Positions 2,518 to 56,800 of a DNA stretch of 64,000 bases are shown here, piece after piece (position 1 is the stretch's first letter; every line of letters begins with the position of its first letter). The translations under genes were made by a program, and so were the position numbers. The notes below the pieces were generated by a model, which was not told the origin of the DNA, ran no database searches, and saw only the letters and a list, made by a program, of their open reading frames with translations. The stretch comes from a bacterium (GTDB lineage: Bacteria > Patescibacteriota > Patescibacteriia > 2-01-FULL-39-33), in NCBI GenBank assembly GCA_029558735.1, contig JAKQDP010000070.1, positions 42,700 through 106,699 of the forward strand, in the 5' to 3' direction.

Positions 2518-3675
2518 CTAATTTCCTTTAAAAATTTGACGATAAATATTCAAAGTGTTTCTAGCTAAAACAGACCAAGAATATCTTTTTAGATTCTCCC
2601 GTCCGCGTCTAATTAGATCCTCTCTTAATAAATGATCATGTAAAACGGTTTTAATTTTTTGAGTTATTTCGTAGGGATCATTGGGATCAAAAAATAAAGC
2701 GCTCTGTCCAAGAATTTCCGGCAAACAGGTGGCATTGGAACTGACCACCGGCAAGTCATAACTTTGCGCCTCTAGCGGCGGCAAGCCAAAGCCCTCAATC
2801 AAACTGGGAAAAACATATGCTTCGGCGCCGGCATACAAGCAGGCCAAATCATTATCATCAACAAATCCAGTTAATATCACCCGACCAGTTAAGCCGCTGT
2901 CGTCAATTTGCTGTTTTAATTTTTGATAAAAAAATGTTTCTTTACCGACTAAAACCAACTGTAATTGGTCGTGATCTTGAATCAAATACCTAAAGGCATG
3001 GAGCAAATTATCCAAATTTTTATGAGGGTAGGCCGAACCAACATAGAGCAGATAGTTATGGTTCAAATTGAAGCGTTCCAATACTTGCCGGCAATCACTA
3101 GAACGATCAAGCGGCGGATCATAGCCCTCATAAGTAATATTGATTTTTTCCGGTCGGATTTTAAGTGAATTAACAATATCATCTTTGCTAAATTGGGAAA
3201 CAGTAATAATGGTCGCCGCTCGTTTAGCCGCTGATTTGACAGTTAAACGATAGAAAAAAAGTTTTAATCGATAAAGAACCAATGGTAAAGTAGTGGCCCG
3301 GCTATCAGGATAATGAGAAATAATCAAATCATGAATAGTCACTACAAATGGCCGACGATAAAACCAAGGCACATTAAAATGAGGAAAATGAACCAAATCC
3401 AATTTATATTTAGCAAGAAGATAGGGCAATCGCAGTTGCTCTTTCACCGAATAAACCGAATAATCGGCTAAAACCTTTTTAAAATTAGCGCCGGGTACTT
3501 CAAACACAGCAAAACCGGCTCGGTCCAAAAAAATAAAATACTCATTTTTTCCGTCAATTGCCGCCAAACCTTCAATTAATTTCTGGATATAGCGACCAAT
3601 GCCGGCATGGCCGGGTCCATATAACCTGGCGTCAATACCAATTTTTAAGTGAGTTGTTGACTGATCAACTTTCAT
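2518..3675 (-). CDS. Glycosyltransferase, family 1 (GT4-like)
   Basis: C-terminal GT1 motif EGFGLPPLEAQSYDLPVVSSNATCLPEI. Sits in a sugar-transferase cluster. Confidence 0.8.
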   Translation of the reverse strand: MKVDQSTTHLKIGIDARLYGPGHAGIGRYIQKLIEGLAAIDGKNEYFIFLDRAGFAVFEVPGANFKKVLADYSVYSVKEQLRLPYLLAKYKLDLVHFPHFNVPWFYRRPFVVTIHDLIISHYPDSRATTLPLVLYRLKLFFYRLTVKSAAKRAATIITVSQFSKDDIVNSLKIRPEKINITYEGYDPPLDRSSDCRQVLERFNLNHNYLLYVGSAYPHKNLDNLLHAFRYLIQDHDQLQLVLVGKETFFYQKLKQQIDDSGLTGRVILTGFVDDNDLACLYAGAEAYVFPSLIEGFGLPPLEAQSYDLPVVSSNATCLPEILGQSALFFDPNDPYEITQKIKTVLHDHLLREDLIRRGRENLKRYSWSVLARNTLNIYRQIFKGN

Positions 3676-4793
3676 AATTCTTGTTCAAAAATTTGTAAAG
3701 TCTTTCTAGCGGTTTTCTGCCAACTGAACTGTTGAGCGCGCTCCAAGCCCTGATTAATAAGCTGCGCCCGAAAACGGCTATCAGTCCGTAAACAATTAAT
3801 AGCTGCCACTATTTCTCCCTGATTATAGGGGTCAACCAATAACCCCGCGCGATCAACTACCTCCAATTGAGAAGAATTATTGGCCGCGATCACCGGACAG
3901 CCGCAGGCCATCGCCTCCATAATCGGCAAACCAAACCCTTCATAATATGACGGGTAAAGAAAAATTTCCGCTAAATTATATAAAGCCGGTTTATCGGCTT
4001 CGGCCACATAGCCAATTAATTTGATTCGCTTATCTTGATTAGCTAGGGTTCTGACCAATTTCGCTTTCCAACTCAACCCGCCGGCGATTACCAGGTGGTT
4101 ATCCCCCTCAATATTTTTAAAAGATTCTATAATAGTTTCAATATTTTTACGGGGCTCCAAATTGCCAAGATACAAAATAAATTTTTCCGGTAAATTATAC
4201 TTCGTCCTCACCGCCGCCAGAATTGGATCAGCTTTATCCAACTGACGATAGTGTTTACTAACACCCAACTGAACCACTCTAATTTTTTCAACGGGGATAC
4301 CTAATAAATCAACCAAATCTTCCTTAGTGTTATCGGAGTCAGCAATCAAAATATCAGCTTGTTTAATAACCCCCTTCCTTAAAACTAATTTTTGCCACAG
4401 TCGCATTTTCCAGGAAAAAAAATCGGAAAATTTTAAAAAAGATAAATCATGGACAACTAACACTCGCCGACAATTTGGGGACCAGGAAGCAAAATGCAGA
4501 TTGGGCAAGAAAAACAAATCCACCCCGCCAATCAGTTGGTCAAATTTGGGAAAATCAAAAAAATTAACCGCCAAATTAAATAGCTTATTTGGATAATTAA
4601 AGCCGCAATTAAAGGCATTGGTTTGGGAAAAATCTGGCACGGTAGTTTTTTTTCGAGAATTATAAAAAAGCAGATACTGATTTTTTTGATCGAGCGCCAA
4701 TAAATTTTCCAGTAAATGATAGGTATACCAAGACACCCCCGAATACCGATTATCCATCAATGACCGGATGTCGACCCCTATTTTCATCTCCAA
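3672..4793 (-). CDS. Glycosyltransferase, family 1
   Basis: GT1 motif YEGFGLPIMEAMACGCPVIAANNSSQLEVV. Overlaps the neighbour by 4 nt, a coupled-operon arrangement. Confidence 0.8.
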   Translation of the reverse strand: MEMKIGVDIRSLMDNRYSGVSWYTYHLLENLLALDQKNQYLLFYNSRKKTTVPDFSQTNAFNCGFNYPNKLFNLAVNFFDFPKFDQLIGGVDLFFLPNLHFASWSPNCRRVLVVHDLSFLKFSDFFSWKMRLWQKLVLRKGVIKQADILIADSDNTKEDLVDLLGIPVEKIRVVQLGVSKHYRQLDKADPILAAVRTKYNLPEKFILYLGNLEPRKNIETIIESFKNIEGDNHLVIAGGLSWKAKLVRTLANQDKRIKLIGYVAEADKPALYNLAEIFLYPSYYEGFGLPIMEAMACGCPVIAANNSSQLEVVDRAGLLVDPYNQGEIVAAINCLRTDSRFRAQLINQGLERAQQFSWQKTARKTLQIFEQEL

Positions 4794-7588: not shown

Positions 7589-7699
7589 ATTATAATTTTA
7601 ACCAAAAATTCTAACATAATAAAGAAGGAAAATCAAGAATAAAGTCTTCTCTTACCCGCAATCATTGACAAATATTAAAATATTTGATAAAATAATTTT

Positions 7700-8110
7700 G
7701 TCCAAACAAGCTGGATGACTGCTCGGTTTTAGCTTTAAACGCTTTGACCGGGAGGAAAGTCCGAACACTCTTTCCGTTTTTTTTTCGGAATGTCGTGGTA
7801 GTGGCTAACGGCCACCCAGGTCGTCGCAAGGCGGTCTGAGGACTAGTTCCACAGAGACAATACTATCCCGAGCAATCGGGACAAATGTGAAAAGTGTGAA
7901 GGTGTTTTAAATTGGGCTAGAGATATCTCCTCAACTTAAAGCTACTTCACTCGGCCTCTGGCGACAGAGTGCCCGTGGTAAACTCTACCTAGTGCAACCC
8001 CAAATCTAGTCGGGGGCTCGAGCTGGCCAGTAATGACCAGCCCAGATAGATAGTCATCGCTCTGATTATTGTCAGAGTACAGAATTCGGCTTATAGGCTT
8101 GTTTGGACCA
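7700..8110 (+). ncRNA. rnpB: RNase P RNA (bacterial type A-like)
   Basis: Conserved P4 5' strand GGAGGAAAGTCCG at ~7751-7763. GGTAAACTCtACC motif at ~7975. Conserved 3' element ACAGAAttCGGCTTATaGG at 8079-8097. P1 pairing: ccaaacaagc at 7703-7712 pairs with gcttgtttgg at 8096-8105. The 61-aa ORF at 7942-8127 on the opposite strand is spurious. Confidence 0.8.
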
Positions 8111-8112
8111 AT

Positions 8113-8146
8113 TAAAAACCAACCCAATTATTTGGGTTGGTTTTTG
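8113..8146. terminator. Bidirectional intrinsic terminator between rnpB (+) and rnhA (-)
   Basis: Hairpin aaaaaccaaccca-attat-tgggttggttttt, with a T-run on both strands. Confidence 0.5.
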
Positions 8147-8158
8147 CTTTAATGCTTT

Positions 8159-8557
8159 TTAGCAACTATGTTCGTCAAGCGCCTCATTGACCAAACGATC
8201 CGCTTCTTTATTATCCTCGCGAAAAACATGTTTAAAATTTATTTTGTCAAAAGCCTGAGCCAAATTCCAAACCTTGACAAATAATGGCGCGATGCCGGCG
8301 TTTTTGACCTTATACTCCCGATTTAATTGTTTTACTACCAATTCCGAATCAAGACAACAATCCACCTCGCCAACCCCGGCTGCTCGGGCTTTTTCTAACC
8401 CCAAGATTAATGCCTGGTATTCCGCCTGATTGTTGGTCGCCTCGCCAATATATTGCTTATAAACCCATTTTTGCCCAGCAATTTCCAAAACCACCCCAAT
8501 GCCCGCCGGTCCAGGATTGCCCCGAGCTCCCCCATCTGTATGCAAAATCGCTTTCAT
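8159..8557 (-). CDS. rnhA: Ribonuclease HI
   Basis: RNase H type-1 motifs HTDGGARGNPGPAG and NNQAEYQALI, with the DEDD catalytic residue pattern. Confidence 0.75.
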   Translation of the reverse strand: MKAILHTDGGARGNPGPAGIGVVLEIAGQKWVYKQYIGEATNNQAEYQALILGLEKARAAGVGEVDCCLDSELVVKQLNREYKVKNAGIAPLFVKVWNLAQAFDKINFKHVFREDNKEADRLVNEALDEHSC

Positions 8558-12430: not shown

Positions 12431-12462
12431 ATAGAGACATTATCCGCAATGTCTCTACAATC
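12431..12462 (-). terminator. Intrinsic terminator downstream of murJ
   Basis: 10-bp hairpin tagagacatt-atccgc-aatgtctcta, followed on the minus strand by a T-run (plus-strand ttttta upstream of the hairpin). Confidence 0.4.
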
Positions 12463-29703: not shown

Positions 29704-30900
29704 TTATCGTCTTCTTCTTTTCTGACGGCTGGCGCGATTGCCAAAGCGGTGCGCCTCATCCCTAACCTGGAGCAAAATATTTTTACTGTTGGCAGCCAAG
29801 TCCTTGATGGACTTTTTGGTTTGCGGCGGAAACACCAGCTTATCCCCGCCGAATTTGGAAAGACCGATAATCGGGGTGGCAATATTGGATTTTCGCAAAA
29901 TCTTGAAAGCATAATCCACTTGAGGCTTGCCGCCATCTATCAGAATCAGATCGGGTAATGGCCACTCCAGATGCCTAAACCGCCTCAACAATGTTTCCGC
30001 CAAGGCCGCCAAATCATCGCCGGGCAAAGCCTCTCTAATACTAAAAAGACGGTATTGGCTTTTGTCCGGCCGACCATCTCTAAATACCGACATCGCTCCG
30101 TAAGTCTCCCGCCCGGACCAATGGGAAATATCATAGCCCTCTATTCTATTGATGGCTTGGGTGGAAGTTATTTCGTCCCTGGTTATCAAAGTGACATCTT
30201 GAATATGCTTCAGGGCCGCCAGTTTGTCCGGGTTTTCTTTTTTTAGTTTATTGACCAGCCTCGTCTTCTGTCCGCCTAAAAGCAAACTGATATTTTTAAT
30301 ATTTTTTTGATAATCCTCACAGCTAATAGCGCCGATGCAGCTGCCCGGACATAAGCCGATTTGCTGATCAAAACAGGGCCGTCCTTGATTGGGCCGGCAA
30401 GTGCTGTAAGGAAATATCCGTCTGATCACTTTAAGCGCATTATTGATCAAGCTAGCGCTTTGATACGGGCCGAATATTCTATTTTTGTTGGCGGGAAATT
30501 TTTTCAATTCCCGCTCCCGGACTATCATCGGCCGGGGATAAGCACCGGCCGTCAGCACAATATAAACAAACGACCGATTATCTTTGTCTTTAACATTGTA
30601 TTTGGGCCAATATTTTTTAATCAGTTTGGCCTCCAAAACAACCGAATCCAAAATATTTTCAGTTGGCTGATACTTAATACTCTTCGCCTGATTGACCATC
30701 TCGGCAATGCGCGGGTCAATGTCTTTCCGGAAATACTGCGCTATCCGTTTTTTCAAGCTGGTGGCTCTGCCAATATAAAGCACCTCGTTATTTTTGCCCA
30801 ACCAAAAATAAACACCGGGCGCGTCTGGAAATTTTTTCGTTTTATTCAATATTTTATCTGTCATAGGATTTAAACCAATCATTCTTAGCACATTTGCCAT
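29704..30900 (-). CDS. uvrC: Excinuclease ABC subunit C (short form, 398 aa)
   Basis: N-terminal GIY-YIG (PGVYFWLGKNNEVLYIGRATSLKKRIAQYF), a UvrBC-interaction region, and RDEAHRFGNRASR at the C-terminus. No HhH tail. Confidence 0.75.
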   Translation of the reverse strand: MANVLRMIGLNPMTDKILNKTKKFPDAPGVYFWLGKNNEVLYIGRATSLKKRIAQYFRKDIDPRIAEMVNQAKSIKYQPTENILDSVVLEAKLIKKYWPKYNVKDKDNRSFVYIVLTAGAYPRPMIVRERELKKFPANKNRIFGPYQSASLINNALKVIRRIFPYSTCRPNQGRPCFDQQIGLCPGSCIGAISCEDYQKNIKNISLLLGGQKTRLVNKLKKENPDKLAALKHIQDVTLITRDEITSTQAINRIEGYDISHWSGRETYGAMSVFRDGRPDKSQYRLFSIREALPGDDLAALAETLLRRFRHLEWPLPDLILIDGGKPQVDYAFKILRKSNIATPIIGLSKFGGDKLVFPPQTKKSIKDLAANSKNILLQVRDEAHRFGNRASRQKRRRR

Positions 30901-30923
30901 AGACGGAGAATACCCGTCTCTAT
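30899..30923. repeat. REP-like imperfect palindrome immediately downstream of the RAYT gene
   Basis: atagacgg-agaatac-ccgtctctat. Shares the core TAGAGACGG with the palindrome inside the gene. Confidence 0.35.
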
Positions 30924-30931
30924 ATTTTAAT

Positions 30932-31447
30932 TTATTTGATATTAATCGGATTGTTTTTGTCTTTATCCCACATCCTTGGATTATATTTTATATAATACCT
31001 GATTTTGTCCAAAGATTCAGCATTGGTTCTTATAACATGGTCATAAAACCTGGATTGCCAAGAAAAATTTTTATGGCCGGCAAGATGAATTTTCCTAGTA
31101 CAAGCTGATTTAAATGATCCAACAATATTGGATAATGAACTGGTTTTGCCTTGTTCCGTAGAGACGGGGCATGCCCCGTCTCTACCCGCATTATCAGAAT
31201 TATTATTAATTTCAATTATAAAATGAATATGATTTGGCATCACAATGAATTCATCCAAAACACAATCAGAATAATGTTTTGAGAGTTCTTGCCAATATTT
31301 GTAACAAATACAACCTAATTTATTCAATCCCATTATCCCATTTTTCACCCTGCCCAAACAGCATTTTCTGTCTTTGACGCATATGGTAATAAAATACAAA
31401 CCCGGACTGGAATAATCATAAACATGCCACCGCGCTGAATTGACCAA
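30932..31447 (-). CDS. REP-associated tyrosine transposase (RAYT / TnpA_REP, IS200-IS605-like Y1 HuH transposase)
   Basis: HuH motif MPNHIHFII. SACT...RFYDHVIR...IRYYIKYNP matches the E. coli RAYT architecture (HAC...RFWEHAIR...YIYINP), including the catalytic Tyr region. 171 aa. Confidence 0.7.
   Translation of the reverse strand: MVNSARWHVYDYSSPGLYFITICVKDRKCCLGRVKNGIMGLNKLGCICYKYWQELSKHYSDCVLDEFIVMPNHIHFIIEINNNSDNAGRDGACPVSTEQGKTSSLSNIVGSFKSACTRKIHLAGHKNFSWQSRFYDHVIRTNAESLDKIRYYIKYNPRMWDKDKNNPINIK
31158..31185. repeat. Perfect 28-bp palindrome embedded in-frame in the RAYT gene
   Basis: gtagagacggggcatgccccgtctctac is its own reverse complement and encodes GRDGACPVS. Confidence 0.6.
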
Positions 31448-31524
31448 ATACTTATTTTGATAATAATTATTATCAATATTTTATCTAAATTTAGACAAAA
31501 TATATATTTTATGGAAAAATACCC

Positions 31525-31553
31525 TTGACAAAATAAATTAGACGTGATATAAT
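31525..31553 (+). promoter_or_regulatory. Consensus sigma70 promoter (TTGACA-17-TATAAT), divergent from the RAYT gene
   Basis: TTGACA at 31525-31530, 17-nt spacer, TATAAT at 31548-31553. Confidence 0.55.
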
Positions 31554-31756
31554 TGTATGTTGGCCTGTCATAGTGATAGGCCTGAAACTGGGAGGAAAGG
31601 AATGTCCCAGTTTAAAGACTCCATTTAAGGGTGAAAAAAACTCCTGCCGGCATACGGGTCGCCGCGCTGGAGGGGAGAAAACGCTTTATTTGCCAACCGG
31701 ACGCGATTGGCAAAAAAAATAAAGCGTTACGGACTCGAAGTCAGCTGGCGAGTTTG

Positions 31757-31838
31757 CGCAAAGTAGCCGCCACTTAAGTGCCGACGAAAGCGTAACTTCG
31801 CAAAGTAGCCGCCACTAAGTGCCGGCGAAACCCGAGAG
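31757..31838. repeat. Tandem direct repeat, 2 x ~42 nt, each carrying the 10-bp palindrome CACTTAAGTG (second copy CACTAAGTG)
   Basis: cgcaaagtagccgccacttaagtgccgacgaaa repeated 42 nt apart. Confidence 0.55.
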
Positions 31839-31913
31839 GCGTTTGAGATGCCTCTGTCCAGCTGAAACGGGACCTGACCAGTCCCTATAAACCGACTCCC
31901 TCACCCGATAACC

Positions 31914-31952
31914 AGCCCCTTGCCCAAGCGAGATAAGCAAGGGGTTTTTTAT
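31914..31952 (+). terminator. Intrinsic terminator (plus strand only)
   Basis: Hairpin ccccttgc-ccaagcgagataa-gcaagggg followed by tttttt. No U-tract on the minus strand, so it does not serve uvrA. Confidence 0.6.
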
Positions 31953-31963
31953 TTGCAAAAAAA

Positions 31964-34525
31964 CTATAAATATTTTTTAAGGTACTGACCGGTAATGCTT
32001 TTCTCATCCCGAGCGACTTCCTCGGGCAAGCCCTTGGCTATCACTCGACCGCCGCCCGCTCCGCCATCCGGGCCCAAATCAATAAGCCAATCAGCAGATT
32101 TAATAATATGCATATTATGCTCAATTATCGCAATGCTGTTACCCCGCTCAATCAATTTATTCAATACTTCCAACAACAATTGGATATCATAATAATGCAA
32201 GCCGACTGTCGGTTCATCCAAAAGATAGAGAGTCTTTTTGCCCAGAGTATGTGTTAGTTCCCGAGCCAGCTTGATTCTTTGCGCTTCGCCGCCCGATAAC
32301 GTGGTGGCGCTTTGGCCCAACTGCAAATAGCCCAAACCGACCTCCTCTAATACTTTCAATTTGTCGGTAATTTGGTATTGGCCGTCAAAATAATTAAGCG
32401 CCTCATCAATGGTCAATTCCAGCACTTCGGCAATATTTTTATTTTTGTACTTGACCTGCAAAGTTTCTCGATTGAAGCGCCGGCCGTGGCACACTTCGCA
32501 TTCCACATAAACCGGCGGCAAAAAATGCATCTCAATTAGATTAAAGCCAGCGCCGGCGCAGGCCTCGCACCGCCCGCCGGCGCGATTGAAAGAAAAACGC
32601 GATAACGTGTAAGCCCGCTCCCGCGATTGGGGCAACTGGGCGAAAAACTCGCGAATCGGCATAAAGATGCCGGTATAAGTGGCGGGGTTGGAACGCGGGC
32701 TGCGGCCAATCGGCGACTGATCCACTACTACCGCCCGATTAATATACTCACTACCGACAATCTTGCTGACATTTTCCAGCTCCTGTCGATGGCCGCTCTT
32801 GATTTTGACCAAATTGCGATAAAGAACATCATACAATAAAGTTGATTTGCCACTGCCGGACACGCCGGTGACGCAAACCAATTTCCGAAGCGGAATCTCC
32901 ACCTGAATATTTTTCAAATTATTAGCTCTGGCGCCGATAATCTTAATCATTTCGCTATCCTTCATTCGTCGGTGGGGAAAATTGATTTCCTTTTTGCCCC
33001 GCAAATAATCCAGTGTCAATGAATCTGCCGGGCTGTTTTTACTAAGCAATTTGTTGACTTCCCCTTGCGCCACCACTTCCCCACCCTGCCGACCGGCCAA
33101 CGGTCCCAAGTCCACCAAATAATCTGACTCCCTGATCACTCGCTCATCATGCTCGACAATAATCACGCTGTTATTTTGATCCCGAAGCGATTTTAAGGTG
33201 TCAATCAATTTTTCGTTATCCCGCTCGTGGAGACCGATAGTCGGCTCATCAAGAATATAAAGCGTATGCGACAGATGCGAGCCGATTTGCGAGGACAGCC
33301 TGATGCGCTGGGCCTCGCCGCCCGATAATGTCTCGGCTTCGCGGTCCAGCGACAAATAATTCAAGCCGACCTGAAGCAGGAAAAACAGCCGATCGCTCAC
33401 TTCTTGGATGATATCGCCGGCGATTTCCTGATTGCGCTTGCTGATTTTTTTACGGTAATCTTCAAAAAAATCATACAATTTGTCTATCGCTAAGGCGCTG
33501 ATTTGGGCGATATTTTTATCCAGTATCTTGATCGCCAATGTTTCCGGCCGCAACCGCTGGCCGGCGCAGGCCAAACATGGTTTAGTCACTCGCTCATACC
33601 GATTGGCCACCTCCCCCACCTCCCCGTCTTTAACGGCTATTTTCTTTTTTTCCCAGGATTCCAATCGGCCCAAGCCAGAACATTGAGGACAAGCGCCATG
33701 CGGACTGTTAAACGAAAACAACCGCGGTTCAACTTCGGGAAAAGCAAAATTATCATAAGGGCAAGTCCAATTGGCCGACAATAACATTTCTTGCTGGTCC
33801 TGACCGTCGCCAAGCACTACCACCACCAAGCCATTACTGTGTTGCAAGGACGCTTCAATTGCCTCCGCCAGCCGGCTCAGATCATCCGGCATCACCTTAT
33901 CGATCACAATGTCAATATTATGCTTTTTATACCGAGCCAGCTTAATCTGTTCGTGCAGGGAATGGACTTCGCCGTCTATTCTGGCCTCGCCATAACCCAA
34001 GGCCAAATAATCATACAACAACTGATAATATTCACCCTTGCGGTCAATAACTACCGGGGCCAAAATAGTCGCGGCTCTAATCGCCAACTCTTTCATCTTA
34101 TCGTTGACAATATCCACCATCTCATCCAAGGCAAGCTTCTTAATTTTGCGGCCGCATTGAGGACAAAACACCTCCCCCACTCGGGCATACAGCACTCGCA
34201 GATAATCGTATATCTCGGTCAAAGTGCCGACTGTCGAACGCGGATTGTGCGACAGGGCTTTCTGGTCAATAGCAATGGACGGCGCCAAACCGACAATTTC
34301 ATCCACGTCCGCCGGCTTCATTTGACCCAAAAATTGCCGGGCATACGGCGACAAGGACTCAATATAACGCCTTTGGCCCTCGGCAAAAATAGTATCAAAA
34401 GCCAAAGAAGACTTACCGCTGCCGGACAAACCAGTAAACACCACCAGTTTGTTGTGTGGTATTTCCAGATTGACATTTTTTAAATTATGGACCCGTGCTC
34501 CGCGAATAATTATTTTATCTGGCAT
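31964..34525 (-). CDS. uvrA: Excinuclease ABC subunit A
   Basis: Two ABC ATPase halves ([16 protein letters not shown]; [10 protein letters not shown]), zinc-finger Cys clusters and LSGGEAQR signatures. 853 aa. Confidence 0.9.
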
Positions 34526-34705
34526 AAAGTTTTTGTTTTTAAAAATATTTTAACTGACTAATTATTGTCTATTGCTGTTTTTAAGTCTTGTTCTTGAGCG
34601 ACTAAATCCGATCAGACCAACGCCAGTTTGACAAACACACTCTTTCCCTGCTAATCTTAGTTAGTTGTTTTATTGTTTCCCCCCAACAAAAGGAAGGTAA
34701 CATCA

Positions 34706-34879
34706 ATGGAAACCGGTGAACAGCTGTTATTGCCTTTGGTTGAGACGACCGTAATCGCCGAGAACCCCAATCAACTGACATTGTTCTTTGAGACCCCCTG
34801 CCAGTGTCGGCCGGGCCAAGCCTGTTCCACTGGTCATACTTATCAAGAGTGCGACCAGGACTGCGGCCTGGGAGCATAA
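34706..34879 (+). CDS. Candidate small Cys-rich peptide, 57 aa (METGEQLLLPLVETTVIAENPNQLTLFFETPCQCRPGQACSTGHTYQECDQDCGLGA)
   Basis: Strong RBS (aaAGGAAGGtaacatcaATG) and a terminator hairpin at 34893-34924. Sits between uvrA and uvrB on the opposite strand, with an acidic N-terminal half and six Cys in the C-terminal 26 aa. An alternative 91-aa ORF on the other strand lacks such signals. Confidence 0.35.
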   Translation: METGEQLLLPLVETTVIAENPNQLTLFFETPCQCRPGQACSTGHTYQECDQDCGLGA

Positions 34880-34892
34880 GACGCCTCTTGAT

Positions 34893-34924
34893 CGGCGACG
34901 GCCTAACAGCTGTCGCTTTTTTTA
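34893..34924 (+). terminator. Intrinsic terminator following the small Cys-rich ORF
   Basis: gcgacgg-cctaaca-gctgtcgc followed by ttttttt. Confidence 0.4.
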
Positions 34925-36808
34925 TTTGGAATTTTTTGGAGACCGAAAAGTCGCTTTGGTTTTTTCGCCTGGCTCTTTTTCAATGTCCAAAAAATCTTCA
35001 ATGTCTTTTTTAATTGTCTGCGGCGTAATGCCGTGTTTTTTATTGTATTCCCTCTGCCGTATCCGCCGCCGCTCCACTTCTTTGAGCGCCCGCTTCATTG
35101 AGCCGGTGATATTATCAGCGTACAAAATCACCTGACCGGTCACATTCCTGGCCGCCCGACCCATGGTCTGCATCAGAGATGTCTCACTGCGCAAAAATCC
35201 TTCCCGGTCCGCGTCCAATATAACCACCAAAGTCACCTCCGGCAAATCCAGACCCTCCCTAAGCAAATTAACGCCGATTAAAATATCAAACCGACCCTTC
35301 CTAAAATTCATCAATATCTCGGTACGCTGAATAGTTTTAATATCGCTGTGAATGTAATCGACTTTGAAGCCTTTTTTGCGCAAATAGCTGTCCAGATCCT
35401 CGGCCATTTTTTTGGTCAAAGTATTGACAATCGCCCTTTCCTTTTTTTCCGCTATTACTGTTAATTCCTTGATTAAATCATCAATTTGGCTGTAATTATT
35501 TTTTTGGTCAAACACCGGCCGGACTGTTACCGGCGGATCAATCAACCCGGTCGGCCGAATCACCTGCTCAACAACTTGCCGAGACATTGCCATTTCCCAT
35601 TTGCCCGGCGTCGCAGTGGTAAAAATCACCTGGCCGATTCGATCCTGAAACTCCTGAAAATTAAGGGGTCGATTGTCAATAGCCGAGGGCAGACGCCAAC
35701 CATATTGGACCAAAATTTTCTTGCGCGCCTGATCGCCCTCATACATCCCCCGAATTTGGGGCACGGCAACATGCGACTCGTCAATAATAGTCAAAAAATC
35801 CGACCGGCCGGCCTGGTCTTTCGGAAAATAAGCCAATAAACTGTCTGGCGCCTCACCTGGCAATTTGCCTACCAAGTGGCGAGAATAATTTTCAATGCCA
35901 TGGCAATAACCCAAGGACAACAACATCTCAATATCATATCTAGTCCGTCGTTCCAGCCGTTCCGCCTCCAAATAAAATCCCTTGGACTGAAAATATTTCA
36001 GCCGATCCTTCAGTTCCGTCTTAATGCTTTTGACTGCTTCCTTGATTTCCGGCATCGAAGAAACAAAATGTTTGGGAGGAAAAATAATTATTTCTGTCAA
36101 TGACTCTTTTATTTTTCTGGTCAACTGATCAACTATGGCCAAACCGGAAACTTGCTGCTCCGACAGCTCTAGCCGATAAATGATATTTTCCGCCGCCGGC
36201 ATAATTTCAAACACATCGCCCCGGACCCGAAATGATCCCCGCTTCAACTCGCCCGGCGTCCGTTCAAACTGAATTCTGACCAATTGCTTGATTAAATCTT
36301 GCCGGACAATCGTCTGACCGATTTTCAGATGCAACCGGGCAGCGGTATAGCTGGCCGGCAAGCCCAAATTGTAAATACAGGACACCGAAGCGACAATAAT
36401 CACATCGCGACGACTAGCCAAAGCGCTAGTCGCCTGATGTCGCAACCGATCAATTTCATCATTGATCATTGCTTCTTTTTCTATATAGGTGTCAGTGGAG
36501 GGCAGATAGGCTTCCGGTTGATAATAATCATAATAAGACACGAAATAGTTAACGCTATTTTGGGGGAAAAAATTCTTGTATTCACGATACAGCTGAGCAG
36601 CCAAAGCCTTGTTGGGCGCCACGACCAAAACCGGCCGATTAATCTTTTCGATAATATTGGCCATCGTAAAAGTCTTGCCCGAACCAGTCACACCGACTAA
36701 TGTCTGGTACTGGTCGCCCCGACTCAAACCGGCAGATAATTTGGCAATTGCCTGCGGCTGATCGCCGGCCGGAGCAAATTTTGATTGTAAGTGGAATAAT
36801 TTAGACAT
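34922..36808 (-). CDS. uvrB: Excinuclease ABC subunit B
   Basis: N-terminal QPQAI, helicase motifs GVTGSGKTFTMANI, a beta-hairpin region and a C-terminal UvrB/UvrC interaction domain. 628 aa. Confidence 0.9.
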   Translation of the reverse strand: MSKLFHLQSKFAPAGDQPQAIAKLSAGLSRGDQYQTLVGVTGSGKTFTMANIIEKINRPVLVVAPNKALAAQLYREYKNFFPQNSVNYFVSYYDYYQPEAYLPSTDTYIEKEAMINDEIDRLRHQATSALASRRDVIIVASVSCIYNLGLPASYTAARLHLKIGQTIVRQDLIKQLVRIQFERTPGELKRGSFRVRGDVFEIMPAAENIIYRLELSEQQVSGLAIVDQLTRKIKESLTEIIIFPPKHFVSSMPEIKEAVKSIKTELKDRLKYFQSKGFYLEAERLERRTRYDIEMLLSLGYCHGIENYSRHLVGKLPGEAPDSLLAYFPKDQAGRSDFLTIIDESHVAVPQIRGMYEGDQARKKILVQYGWRLPSAIDNRPLNFQEFQDRIGQVIFTTATPGKWEMAMSRQVVEQVIRPTGLIDPPVTVRPVFDQKNNYSQIDDLIKELTVIAEKKERAIVNTLTKKMAEDLDSYLRKKGFKVDYIHSDIKTIQRTEILMNFRKGRFDILIGVNLLREGLDLPEVTLVVILDADREGFLRSETSLMQTMGRAARNVTGQVILYADNITGSMKRALKEVERRRIRQREYNKKHGITPQTIKKDIEDFLDIEKEPGEKTKATFRSPKNSK

Positions 36809-50634: not shown

Positions 50635-50663
50635 TTGACAAAAAAATATAAATATGATATAAT
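50635..50663 (+). promoter_or_regulatory. Consensus sigma70 promoter with extended -10 (TTGACA-17-TGaTATAAT)
   Basis: TTGACA at 50635-50640; TGaTATAAT at 50655-50663. Confidence 0.55.
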
Positions 50664-50728
50664 AACAAATAGCTAAATATTGTGCTGTAGTCACCCAGTA
50701 CTTAACCTCAGAGATAGGAGAATTTAAC

Positions 50729-50926
50729 ATGGCTAAATCAGAAGAGCAGAAGCAGAGGGAAGAGGAGAGGAAGTACAATGAAGGTTACGAGTCCGCCGTC
50801 AAAGATGGAGGCAGTATGAGTATCGGCGCCTCGATCATGGCTCCCATGTCTGACAGTTGGTGGAAGGGTCGCGAAGACGCCAAGCACGACATTCAGAAGG
50901 GAAAGGCGGAGCGCGGCGAGAAGTAA
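50729..50926 (+). CDS. Small charged hypothetical protein, 65 aa
   Basis: RBS AGGAG 8 nt upstream. Strong promoter ~65 nt upstream. A terminator follows. Confidence 0.5.
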   Translation: MAKSEEQKQREEERKYNEGYESAVKDGGSMSIGASIMAPMSDSWWKGREDAKHDIQKGKAERGEK

Positions 50927-50956
50927 CCGACGAATAATTTGTCGGCAACACCATTC

Positions 50957-50995
50957 GCGGCTTGGAAATTAATCCGAGCCGCTCTTTTAATTTAT
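50957..50995 (+). terminator. Intrinsic terminator after the 65-aa ORF
   Basis: gcggcttgg-aaattaat-ccgagccgc followed by tcttttaatttatttt. Confidence 0.45.
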
Positions 50996-54910: not shown

Positions 54911-56800
54911 TTATTTATTGTCATAAGGCACATTATAATACTGCAAAATAAATTTGGCAATCTCTCCAAAGACTGGCGCGGCAGTCAAGGTGGCTTCCTT
55001 GCCCCAACCCGGTTGATTGATTACCACAATCATCGCAAAACGAGGGTTGTTAAACGGCGCAAAACCGACAAAAGAAGTGTTGACCTCCTCAGAATAGCCG
55101 CGACCGTTTGCTTTGGACACTTGGGCAGTCCCAGTCTTGCCGGCCACCCGATAACCAGCCACCTTGGCCGGTTGACCGTGGCCATTTTCCACGACACTGA
55201 CCATCATCGCGCCTAAAACAGCCGCCGTTTTAGAAGAAATCACCTGCCGAATCTCTTCGGGCTGAATAATTTGCATCTCGCCCTGATTATTGGCGATTTT
55301 TTCGACCAGATACGGCTTCATTAATTTGCCCCCATTGGCAATGGCCGCTACCGCTTTGACTACCTGTAACGGGGTGACAGTAATGCCCTGACCGAAAGAA
55401 GCCGTCGCCGGATAGATTTCGCCGCGACGATCCAAATTGGAAATATCACCGGCCGCTTCCGTGTCCAAAGTAATGCCGGTCAGCCGACCAAAATCAAAAT
55501 CTTCCACGTATTTTTTAAACACTTTGGGAGTGGTTTTGCGCATAGCAAAAATCATTCCGGTGTTAATTGATTTTTCCAAGGCCTGAGTCATCGTCTGGCT
55601 GCCGTAAATCTTATCGTCATAATTTTTAATGATGTCACTGCCGATTTTAACACTGCCCGTATCCTCAAAAACCGTACTCGGAGTAACGCTGTTGCTGTCC
55701 AGGGCCGCCGCCAAAGTAATCACTTTAAAAATCGAACCGGGCTCATAGGCGCTAAAAATCGCCGGATTGTTATACACCTTAATGTCGCTGACCTGATTAT
55801 ATTCGGCTGGATTAAAATCCGGCGCGCCGCACATCGCCAAGACCGCTCCGGTCTTGGGTTCCAAAACTATTACTGCGCCACTCTGAGCCTTGAAATAATC
55901 AACTGCCTGATGAATCGCTTGGCAGACTTTGTACTGAATCGCCCGATCAATGGTCAAAATCAGATCCGAACCGTCAACTTTTTCCCGCAAAGAATGACTG
56001 CCAATGGTGATAATATTGCCCCAAGCATCTCGTTCGGAAAAAATTTCGCCAAACTGCCCGGTTAAAATTTCATCAAAATAACCCTCCAAACCATAACTGC
56101 CTTGCCGCGTATCACCCTGAAATCCCCAAAAACCAAAAATATGTCCGCCCATACCCTGTTCCGAATAAAACCGCCAAACCTCCTGCTGAAATTGCAAACC
56201 CTTAATCCCCCACGATTCGATTATCTCTTTGGTTTCCTCATTGATCCGATGACGCAACGGTTCATAGGGGTCGTCAACTTTGGAAAAAATATTTTTCAGC
56301 CTATCAATCTCCAGGGTTTTTTGCGCTTCTCGCCAATCTGCCAATCGTTTGTCTTTGATTTCCTCGGCCAAAACCGGGTCAAGCGTCGGCGCCAAATCGG
56401 CAAACAACTCGCTTTTAACCTGCTCCATATTGATATCCTCGGGCAAGCCAAATAACTCAAACAACTTATTAGCCGTGGCTTCCGGATCAATAATCTCCTT
56501 GGGAACGGCATAAAGCATATATAAATCCTGATTGGCGACCAGAGGAAACAAAACTTCCTGACCGTTAACATTTTCCGCCACATAGATCGAACCGCGCTCC
56601 GGTACAAACCGCCGATGGAGCTCATGTTGGTCCACGGCGGCAGCGGCATAAAAATCACCCATCAATATCTGCACCTTGAATAAACGCAACACCAATAAAA
56701 CCGCAATAAATATAAAAAAAATGGATAGAAATTTAATTCTACCCTGCCCAGCAATTTTTTCGCGGCTGCGTGTATGGGAAAATGACTTACGCCAAACCAT
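54911..56800 (-). CDS. ftsI: Peptidoglycan D,D-transpeptidase (PBP2/FtsI class B penicillin-binding protein)
   Basis: N-terminal TM and PBP dimerisation domain. Transpeptidase motifs SIFK, SIN (KSINTG) and KTGTA. Confidence 0.85.
   Translation of the reverse strand: MVWRKSFSHTRSREKIAGQGRIKFLSIFFIFIAVLLVLRLFKVQILMGDFYAAAAVDQHELHRRFVPERGSIYVAENVNGQEVLFPLVANQDLYMLYAVPKEIIDPEATANKLFELFGLPEDINMEQVKSELFADLAPTLDPVLAEEIKDKRLADWREAQKTLEIDRLKNIFSKVDDPYEPLRHRINEETKEIIESWGIKGLQFQQEVWRFYSEQGMGGHIFGFWGFQGDTRQGSYGLEGYFDEILTGQFGEIFSERDAWGNIITIGSHSLREKVDGSDLILTIDRAIQYKVCQAIHQAVDYFKAQSGAVIVLEPKTGAVLAMCGAPDFNPAEYNQVSDIKVYNNPAIFSAYEPGSIFKVITLAAALDSNSVTPSTVFEDTGSVKIGSDIIKNYDDKIYGSQTMTQALEKSINTGMIFAMRKTTPKVFKKYVEDFDFGRLTGITLDTEAAGDISNLDRRGEIYPATASFGQGITVTPLQVVKAVAAIANGGKLMKPYLVEKIANNQGEMQIIQPEEIRQVISSKTAAVLGAMMVSVVENGHGQPAKVAGYRVAGKTGTAQVSKANGRGYSEEVNTSFVGFAPFNNPRFAMIVVINQPGWGKEATLTAAPVFGEIAKFILQYYNVPYDNK

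Follow-up and report, generated by a model that had tools for sequence, protein, structure and literature searches.

A candidate structured RNA gene between uvrA and a RAYT-like gene in a Patescibacterium

What is encoded on the plus strand between two genes that both lie on the minus strand? The window, by which we mean the whole 64,000-nucleotide stretch that was analysed, carries uvrB, uvrA, a gene for a RAYT-like Y1/HuH protein, uvrC and truB in that order on the minus strand, and a scan of the six flanking genes against Pfam recognized these five along with a 91-aa ORF that had no match. The interval of interest (31448-31963) lies between uvrA (31964-34525, minus strand), which is convergent with the candidate RNA, and the RAYT-like gene (30932-31447, minus strand, 171 aa), which is divergent from the promoter of the RNA and is a neighbour rather than a demonstrated partner. 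The first-pass annotation called this neighbour a RAYT; the protein is RAYT-like, but its score of 57 bits is below the NCBIfam cut-off of 80 bits for RAYT. The same annotation proposed a structured plus-strand non-coding RNA of about 390 nt and of no recognized class. The promoter, the terminator, the predicted fold and the lack of an Rfam or tmRNA match all agree with this, and the RNA remains a candidate. The uvr operon of this lineage is split by the RAYT-like gene and the convergent promoter unit, and uvrA in the window has no terminator of its own. The window belongs to a metagenome-assembled genome of the Patescibacteria (CPR), and the species is also represented by GCA_035408165.1 and by contigs of several anaerobic-digester metagenomes. 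Patescibacteria genomes are typically about 1 Mb in size.

The promoter is the clearest feature of the interval. A sigma-70 promoter is located at 31525-31553 on the plus strand, with TTGACA at 31525-31530, a 17-nt spacer and TATAAT at 31548-31553. It had been described as near-perfect; it scores 12/12 and has the extended -10 TG (31545-31546) as well. Transcription would start at about 31559-31562. Four perfect TTGACA-17-TATAAT sites are present on the two strands of the 64 kb, where our own estimate from base composition predicts about 0.05 by chance. The other three precede real transcription units, namely the L10 (rplJ) leader and two small genes, and the RNase P RNA gene of the window has a promoter that scores 11/12 and also has the TG. 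Since a 12/12 promoter with TG is of the type found at the rplJ leader and the RNase P RNA, the candidate RNA promoter is, by its sequence, of the grade of the highly expressed units in this genome. Two perfect TTGACA-17-TGnTATAAT units encode small proteins and may be noted in their own right. One, at 50635-50990 on the plus strand, encodes a 65-aa protein rich in Glu and Lys (50729-50926), and the other, at 53554-53300 on the minus strand, encodes a very basic protein of 48 aa (53485-53339). Each of them has its own terminator.

An intrinsic terminator closes the unit at 31916-31950 on the plus strand. The stem, CCCCTTGC/GCAAGGGG, is located at 31916-31944 and is followed by a U-tract at 31945-31950 (T6); the hairpin can also be written as CCCCUUGC...GCAAGGGG. 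RNAfold extends the stem to 10 bp with a 13-nt loop and an energy of -15.8 kcal/mol, and the terminator was missed by the terminator scanner solely because the scanner limits loops to 8. The terminator ends 14 nt short of the uvrA stop codon (31964-31966, minus strand). The statement that it acts on the plus strand only is borne out, as the minus strand has CUGGUUAUCGG after the hairpin and no U-run there.

Is the transcript between these two signals structured? The GC content of the interval is 50-54%, compared with 31% in the flanking spacer. The whole transcript has a predicted minimum free energy of -154.9 kcal/mol on the plus strand, with a z-score of -6.29 against dinucleotide shuffles, and the core without the 5' hairpins and the terminator reaches a z-score of -4.21 against the same kind of shuffles. 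For comparison, the z-score is -4.83 for the RNase P RNA of the same window, -3.12 for a complete small mRNA unit with its terminator and -1.05 for an equal length of uvrA coding DNA. The structure signal is genuine, and the predicted folding is as strong as that of an established structured RNA from this genome. The minus strand of the interval folds equally well (-160.8 kcal/mol, z-score of -6.21 against dinucleotide shuffles), and the numbers of G.U pairs are symmetric, nine on the plus strand vs nine on the minus strand, and so uninformative for the strand. It follows that only the promoter and the terminator decide the strand.

The predicted fold consists of two 5' hairpins, a closed core and the terminator. 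Hairpin H1, GGCCUGUCA-UAG-UGAUAGGCC (31562-31582, plus strand), has 9 predicted base pairs including one G.U pair that would become an A.C mismatch on the minus strand. Hairpin H2, AAACUGGGA/UCCCAGUUU (31585-31613, within an element of 31585-31628 on the plus strand), encloses a Shine-Dalgarno (SD) sequence GGAGG and an ATG at 31602. The core is a predicted closed multi-branch structure of about 275 nt (31629-31906, plus strand), in which GGGUGA (31629-31634) would pair with UCACCC (31901-31906). It is predicted to contain a long hairpin at 31680-31728, the two hairpins of a tandem repeat, and hairpins at 31835-31855 and 31869-31885.

The presence of a start codon behind an SD sequence raises the question of coding. 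All six reading frames of the interval are interrupted by stops. The SD GGAGG (31591-31595) is canonical and is located 6 nt before the ATG, as in real genes of the window, but this sole ORF with both SD and ATG (31602-31628) has 8 codons and encodes MSQFKDSI*. The earlier claim that no ORF exceeds 8 codons is correct for ORFs with an SD and an ATG; it does not hold for mechanical ORFs starting with GTG or TTG, which reach 47-49 aa on both strands and lack an SD. Two of these were looked up in the assembly collection, where they are not recorded as called genes. Judged from these frames, the interval is without a credible coding frame. A micro-peptide mRNA, or a leader-peptide attenuator whose terminator could be read through to give an antisense transcript to uvrA, would account for the canonical SD 6 nt before the ATG and for the terminator that follows; the rest of the structured RNA would then serve as a long 3' region or as an expression platform. 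The SD and the start codon are, however, sequestered in a predicted 9-bp hairpin, the plus strand has no gene further down that could be regulated, and the 8-aa product is without comparative support. We therefore consider this explanation very unlikely.

The tandem repeat is located at 31757-31839 on the plus strand and consists of two units, 31757-31798 and 31799 to about 31839. In each unit a 7-bp hairpin that contains a C.C mismatch comes after GTAG. The hairpin of unit 1 runs from G31766 to C31785 with a UUAA loop and an extra C.A mismatch, and that of unit 2 runs from G31808 to C31826 with a UAA loop. Between the two 42-nt units 33 nt are identical, the first 18 nt recurring at a spacing of 42 nt and the last 15 nt at a spacing of 41 nt. 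The repeat is thus real, but the 10-bp palindrome CACTTAAGTG that had been assigned to both units is found in unit 1 only (31771-31780); unit 2 has CACTAAGTG in its place, with one T deleted. A search that allowed up to 3 mismatches found no further copies of the GTAG hairpin in the 64-kb window.

A GTAG-tagged hairpin close to a RAYT-like gene brings REP elements to mind. REPs are defined as 20-50 nt palindromes that stand behind a conserved GTAG tetranucleotide (PMC8266576). In the interval GTAG occurs at 31763-31766 and 31805-31808, each time followed by a 7-bp imperfect hairpin, in agreement with the palindrome part of this definition. The many dispersed extragenic copies that are typical of REPs were not found, as the 64-kb window gave this locus only and a metagenome scan gave this locus and two chance matches in coding sequence. 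In related REPtrons one type of repeat flanks the cognate RAYT gene, often as inverted pairs. The homologues of the RAYT-like gene carry GTAGAGAC..GTCTCTAC or GTAGGGGC..GCCCCTAC palindromes inside or beside the gene, and the window units are direct repeats with a different sequence.

Within the species the interval hardly varies. Sixteen independent assemblies carry it at 99.8-100% identity, and position 31841 (plus strand) is the sole polymorphic site, with G in the window and in the contigs L007 and L011 and A in the 14 other contigs. This change converts a G.U pair with U31849 to an A-U pair in the plus-strand stem 31835-31855; on the minus strand it converts C.A to U-A. It counts as one small point for the plus strand. 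The identity of the interval is itself silent on selection, because uvrA is equally invariant in the same contigs and the divergence of the strains is patchy.

Outside the species, a set of 5.8 billion protein clusters contained no UvrA relatives between 84% and 100% identity. The closest relative, the sister species L016 (GCA_964536975.1), has a UvrA that is 84% identical and the layout uvrA, insert, RAYT-like gene, uvrC. It has the same promoter in the same place (77% identity over 84 nt, E value 2e-9) and the hexamers, the spacing and the TG are kept. From the transcription start onward the L016 sequence is unrelated to that of the window. A local alignment of the two cargoes scored within the range of shuffled sequences, and tblastn with the 129-aa protein encoded in L016 gave no match. 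The L016 cargo (7695-8297, minus strand of that locus) consists of an SD-led ORF of 129 aa with a 24-bp hairpin in its 5'-UTR and its own terminator. The folding z-score is -5.5 for the unit as a whole and -2.4 for the ORF alone. The protein is an orphan among 5.8 billion clusters, where its sole cluster mate differs by one residue, and the AlphaFold model is uninformative (pLDDT 52). By these alignments the cargo behind the promoter is different in the two lineages that have the block. Since the L016 promoter drives a protein ORF, the conservation of the promoter is no proof that the RNA cargo of the window is functional.

In relatives whose UvrA is 76% identical, uvrA abuts uvrC with 0-3 nt between them (window 29704-36808 compared with L017 5001-8762 and L018 5001-8777). 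Because the two genes are contiguous in these relatives, the block formed by the RNA unit and the RAYT-like gene is, as gene order indicates, an insertion into an ancestral uvrA-uvrC junction.

Does the RNA belong to the RAYT-like gene? The first-pass annotation considered it as a transposon-associated guide or regulatory RNA that might recur next to RAYT copies. Homologues of the RAYT-like gene were collected from 80 loci with 31-58% identity, one genome per GTDB species, and four closer homologues with 53-59% identity were added from a large protein set, for a total of 84 loci. None of the 84 has anything similar to the RNA by blastn or nhmmer. In the 30 loci that were measured, the gene is mostly part of a compact array of genes on the same strand, with 30-120 nt separating neighbours. 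Examples are positions behind trmD, between cysS and dus, behind hicAB and behind a secA-like gene, and gaps of this size leave no room for a partner RNA. In addition, L016 has a protein cargo, and the cognate palindromes are different. On the sequences compared, the proposal of a guide or regulatory RNA is therefore not supported, and neither is a role for the candidate RNA as a REP substrate or as a cofactor of the RAYT-like enzyme.

The RAYT-like genes have palindromes of their own. The window gene contains a perfect 28-bp palindrome, GTAGAGACGGGGCATGCCCCGTCTCTAC, inside the ORF after the HuH motif (31158-31185). The identical 28-mer occurs in the same place in L105 (3411-3438), L106 (3853-3880) and L107 (360-387), and the RAYT-like proteins of these three loci are only 54-59% identical to that of the window. 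Another locus, L104, has three copies of GTAGAGACG...CGTCTCTAC, with one before, one within and one after the gene (3456-3483, 3780-3807 and 4112-4139). The palindromes of Patescibacteria RAYT-like genes are of the form GTAGAGAC...GTCTCTAC. In distant homologues from Chloroflexi, Ignavibacteria, Bacteroidota and Clostridia the form is GTAGGGGC...GCCCCTAC, placed either at the corresponding site of the ORF or at the ends of the gene. Both forms are perfect palindromes tagged with GTAG. Many of the loci L021-L100 have palindromes at about 4247-4311. Further relatives of the palindrome in the window are located at 30899-30923, just before the uvrC start, and at 12432-12458, where the minus strand has a terminator-like GTAG hairpin and then a T-run after a gene. 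The likely cognate REP of the RAYT-like enzyme appears, from the placement of these palindromes, to lie within the coding region of the enzyme itself. A second RAYT-like copy with the same internal palindrome is found in the sister species (L022, 3863-4711), so that the gene is not strictly single-copy in that genome. It directly follows a gene of 908 aa, whose C-terminus resembles a SecA-type zinc finger by a reading of the sequence and not by Pfam.

How is the interval best explained? We regard a discrete plus-strand non-coding transcript of about 390 nt (approximately 31559-31950) that has a function as an evenly balanced proposition on the sequence features described above. It is plausible that such an RNA would be the product of an independent, species-restricted sRNA gene belonging to no known family. 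The promoter and the terminator could also frame a lineage-specific cargo slot in which a gene has decayed or been replaced, and the transcript would then be an idle and non-functional relic. L016, with the same promoter, an SD, an orphan ORF of 129 aa and its own terminator, fits this explanation, as do the perfect SD and ATG of the window that open 8 codons only, and the phage, plasmid, metagenome and RAYT-locus searches returned no homologue of the 390-nt element. A relic is nevertheless unlikely. No trace of similarity to the protein or the DNA of L016 is left, the ATG frame has six stops and no long frame fragments are left, and the GC content of 50-54% stands apart from the 31% of the flanking spacer. 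A z-score of -4.2 for the core is unexpected for a decaying gene, the L016 ORF alone reaching -2.4, and all of the assemblies retain the 400 nt unbroken in a genome that is probably very small.

It is quite unlikely that the element acts on the minus strand or as DNA, either as a BIME-like spacer that stabilises or insulates a uvrA-RAYT-uvrC read-through mRNA or as single-stranded DNA hairpins for the RAYT-like enzyme. Both forms leave the consensus promoter and the plus-only terminator unexplained. The minus strand does fold equally well (z-score of -6.2), uvrA lacks a terminator here and is contiguous with uvrC in relatives, and GTAG with an imperfect palindrome by a RAYT-like gene corresponds to the published definition of a REP (PMC8266576, PMC3733652). 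However, no other copy of the GTAG hairpin was found in the 64-kb window or in the metagenome scan, the units are direct and not inverted repeats, and the recurrent palindrome of the clade, GTAGAGAC...GTCTCTAC, has a different sequence.

If the plus-strand RNA is functional, how might it work? The RNA would fold into two hairpins at its 5' end, a closed core of about 275 nt with several branches, and the terminator, and it would act in trans. The most likely mode is that of a protein-binding RNA, in which the two near-identical hairpins 42 nt apart would serve as tandem sites for one RNA-binding protein. The repeat hairpins are the most site-like feature of the RNA, and the loop indel (UUAA vs UAA) would be tolerated by an RNA or single-stranded DNA hairpin but not by a double-stranded DNA operator with fixed spacing, which suggests recognition of a folded hairpin. 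Protein binding specifically, as a reading of the predicted structure, is still doubtful. Antisense pairing would be a less likely mode, and the leading candidate for it is a 16-nt exact match (23/25) between 31902-31925 and 55145-55169, both on the plus strand, with a BLAST E value of 0.002 within the window. By this match RNA positions 31902-31925 are complementary to the mRNA of a minus-strand PBP/FtsI-like gene (54911-56800) in the KVAGYRVAGKTG region. The complementarity is deep in the coding region; its probability of arising by chance in the window is about 0.01, and it may be a chance match. A prediction of targets at the ribosome binding sites of 61 window genes gave a best z-score of -2.1, which is not significant.

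What would the RNA mean if it is real? A strongly expressed structured RNA of 390 nt would have been kept in a lineage of typically very small genomes. An orphan RNA from a single species cannot yet carry the claim of a new RNA class. It is distinctly improbable that the locus represents a new structured RNA class of the Patescibacteria lineage with a tandem-hairpin protein-binding module, or an exchangeable cargo slot beside a HuH enzyme. The cargo slot is the more speculative of these ideas; it would consist of a conserved outward promoter by a domesticated RAYT-like gene, with an RNA here and an orphan protein gene in the sister species, in the manner of a cassette. A useful negative is that the candidate is not to be listed among transposase-associated guide RNAs. 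The GTAG-tagged palindromes inside RAYT-like genes across distant phyla probably matter more widely than the RNA does.

Searches for known families and for homologues elsewhere were made with several methods. Covariance-model searches with Rfam 15 (4227 models, gathering scores) gave no match in 31448-31963, and at E values up to 10 the best scores were 8-21 bits against thresholds of 39-80 bits, which is noise, with none on the core. The first-pass judgement that the RNA is neither tmRNA, SRP RNA nor 6S RNA stands. ARAGORN found three tRNAs in the window but no tmRNA, inspection by eye showed neither a GGUUCGA-type T-arm nor a CCA end, and SRP RNA and 6S RNA were below the Rfam gathering thresholds. 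The gathering thresholds were likewise not reached for other Rfam families, including RNase P, OLE, ROOL, GOLLD, HEARO, riboswitches and T-box. A blastn search of phage and plasmid collections gave no match. Of four exact-pattern scans of viral contigs three were empty, and the fourth gave one match (L020) that is due to chance inside coding DNA. A scan of the metagenome collection with the repeat hairpin returned the same locus (L103) and two chance matches in a high-GC coding gene. These collection scans used exact patterns that diverged homologues would escape, and of the several JGI contigs on which the locus is known to occur the metagenome collection gave just one, which makes this negative weaker than it appears. 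The best RAYT-like match in the genome collection is 58%, so the window species is apparently absent from that collection.

The candidate shares features with several known systems. OLE, ROOL, GOLLD and raiA are examples of large or medium-sized structured non-coding RNAs of bacteria that have a promoter and a terminator of their own and whose function is unknown, and these families are defined by covariation across many genomes. Like them, the candidate is a stand-alone unit, a few hundred nucleotides long, that has no ORF and is predicted to fold with several branches, at a z-score comparable with that of RNase P RNA; it differs in being found in a single species and in having no match to any of the 4227 Rfam models at E values up to 10 apart from noise. 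With the omega-RNAs of TnpB and IscB and the bridge RNAs of IS110 the candidate shares the position of a structured non-coding RNA beside a gene of mobile-element type. Omega-RNAs and bridge RNAs recur with their effector gene (TnpB, IscB or the IS110 recombinase), and none of these was found among the six flanking genes scanned with Pfam. Y1 transposases choose their targets by DNA-DNA pairing (PMC8266576). TIGR arrays have in common with the candidate a Patescibacterium host and a short tandem repeat, and they consist of 36-nt units with two variable spacers each that adjoin a gene for Tas, a Nop-domain protein (PMC12045711). The repeat of the window has two near-identical units of 42 nt, and no Tas or Nop-domain protein is encoded by the six flanking genes. 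In a type III toxin-antitoxin RNA of the ToxI type a toxin gene would be expected downstream; here the repeat RNA is followed by the terminator and by no downstream plus-strand gene.

With REP/BIME elements and REPtrons the candidate shares GTAG and a GC-rich, imperfect palindrome whose stem is irregular, at most 360 nt from a RAYT-like gene; it differs in having just two copies, in direct orientation and on one side of the gene, with none found elsewhere. CsrB and RsmZ are protein-sequestering sRNAs with repeated hairpins. The candidate resembles this type of sRNA in having repeated near-identical hairpins in a long non-coding RNA with a strong promoter, but it has two repeats only and no enrichment in GGA, with about 8 counted by eye vs about 6.6 expected per 390 nt. 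The general features of an sRNA gene, namely its own promoter, its own terminator and the lack of a coding frame, are all found at this locus.
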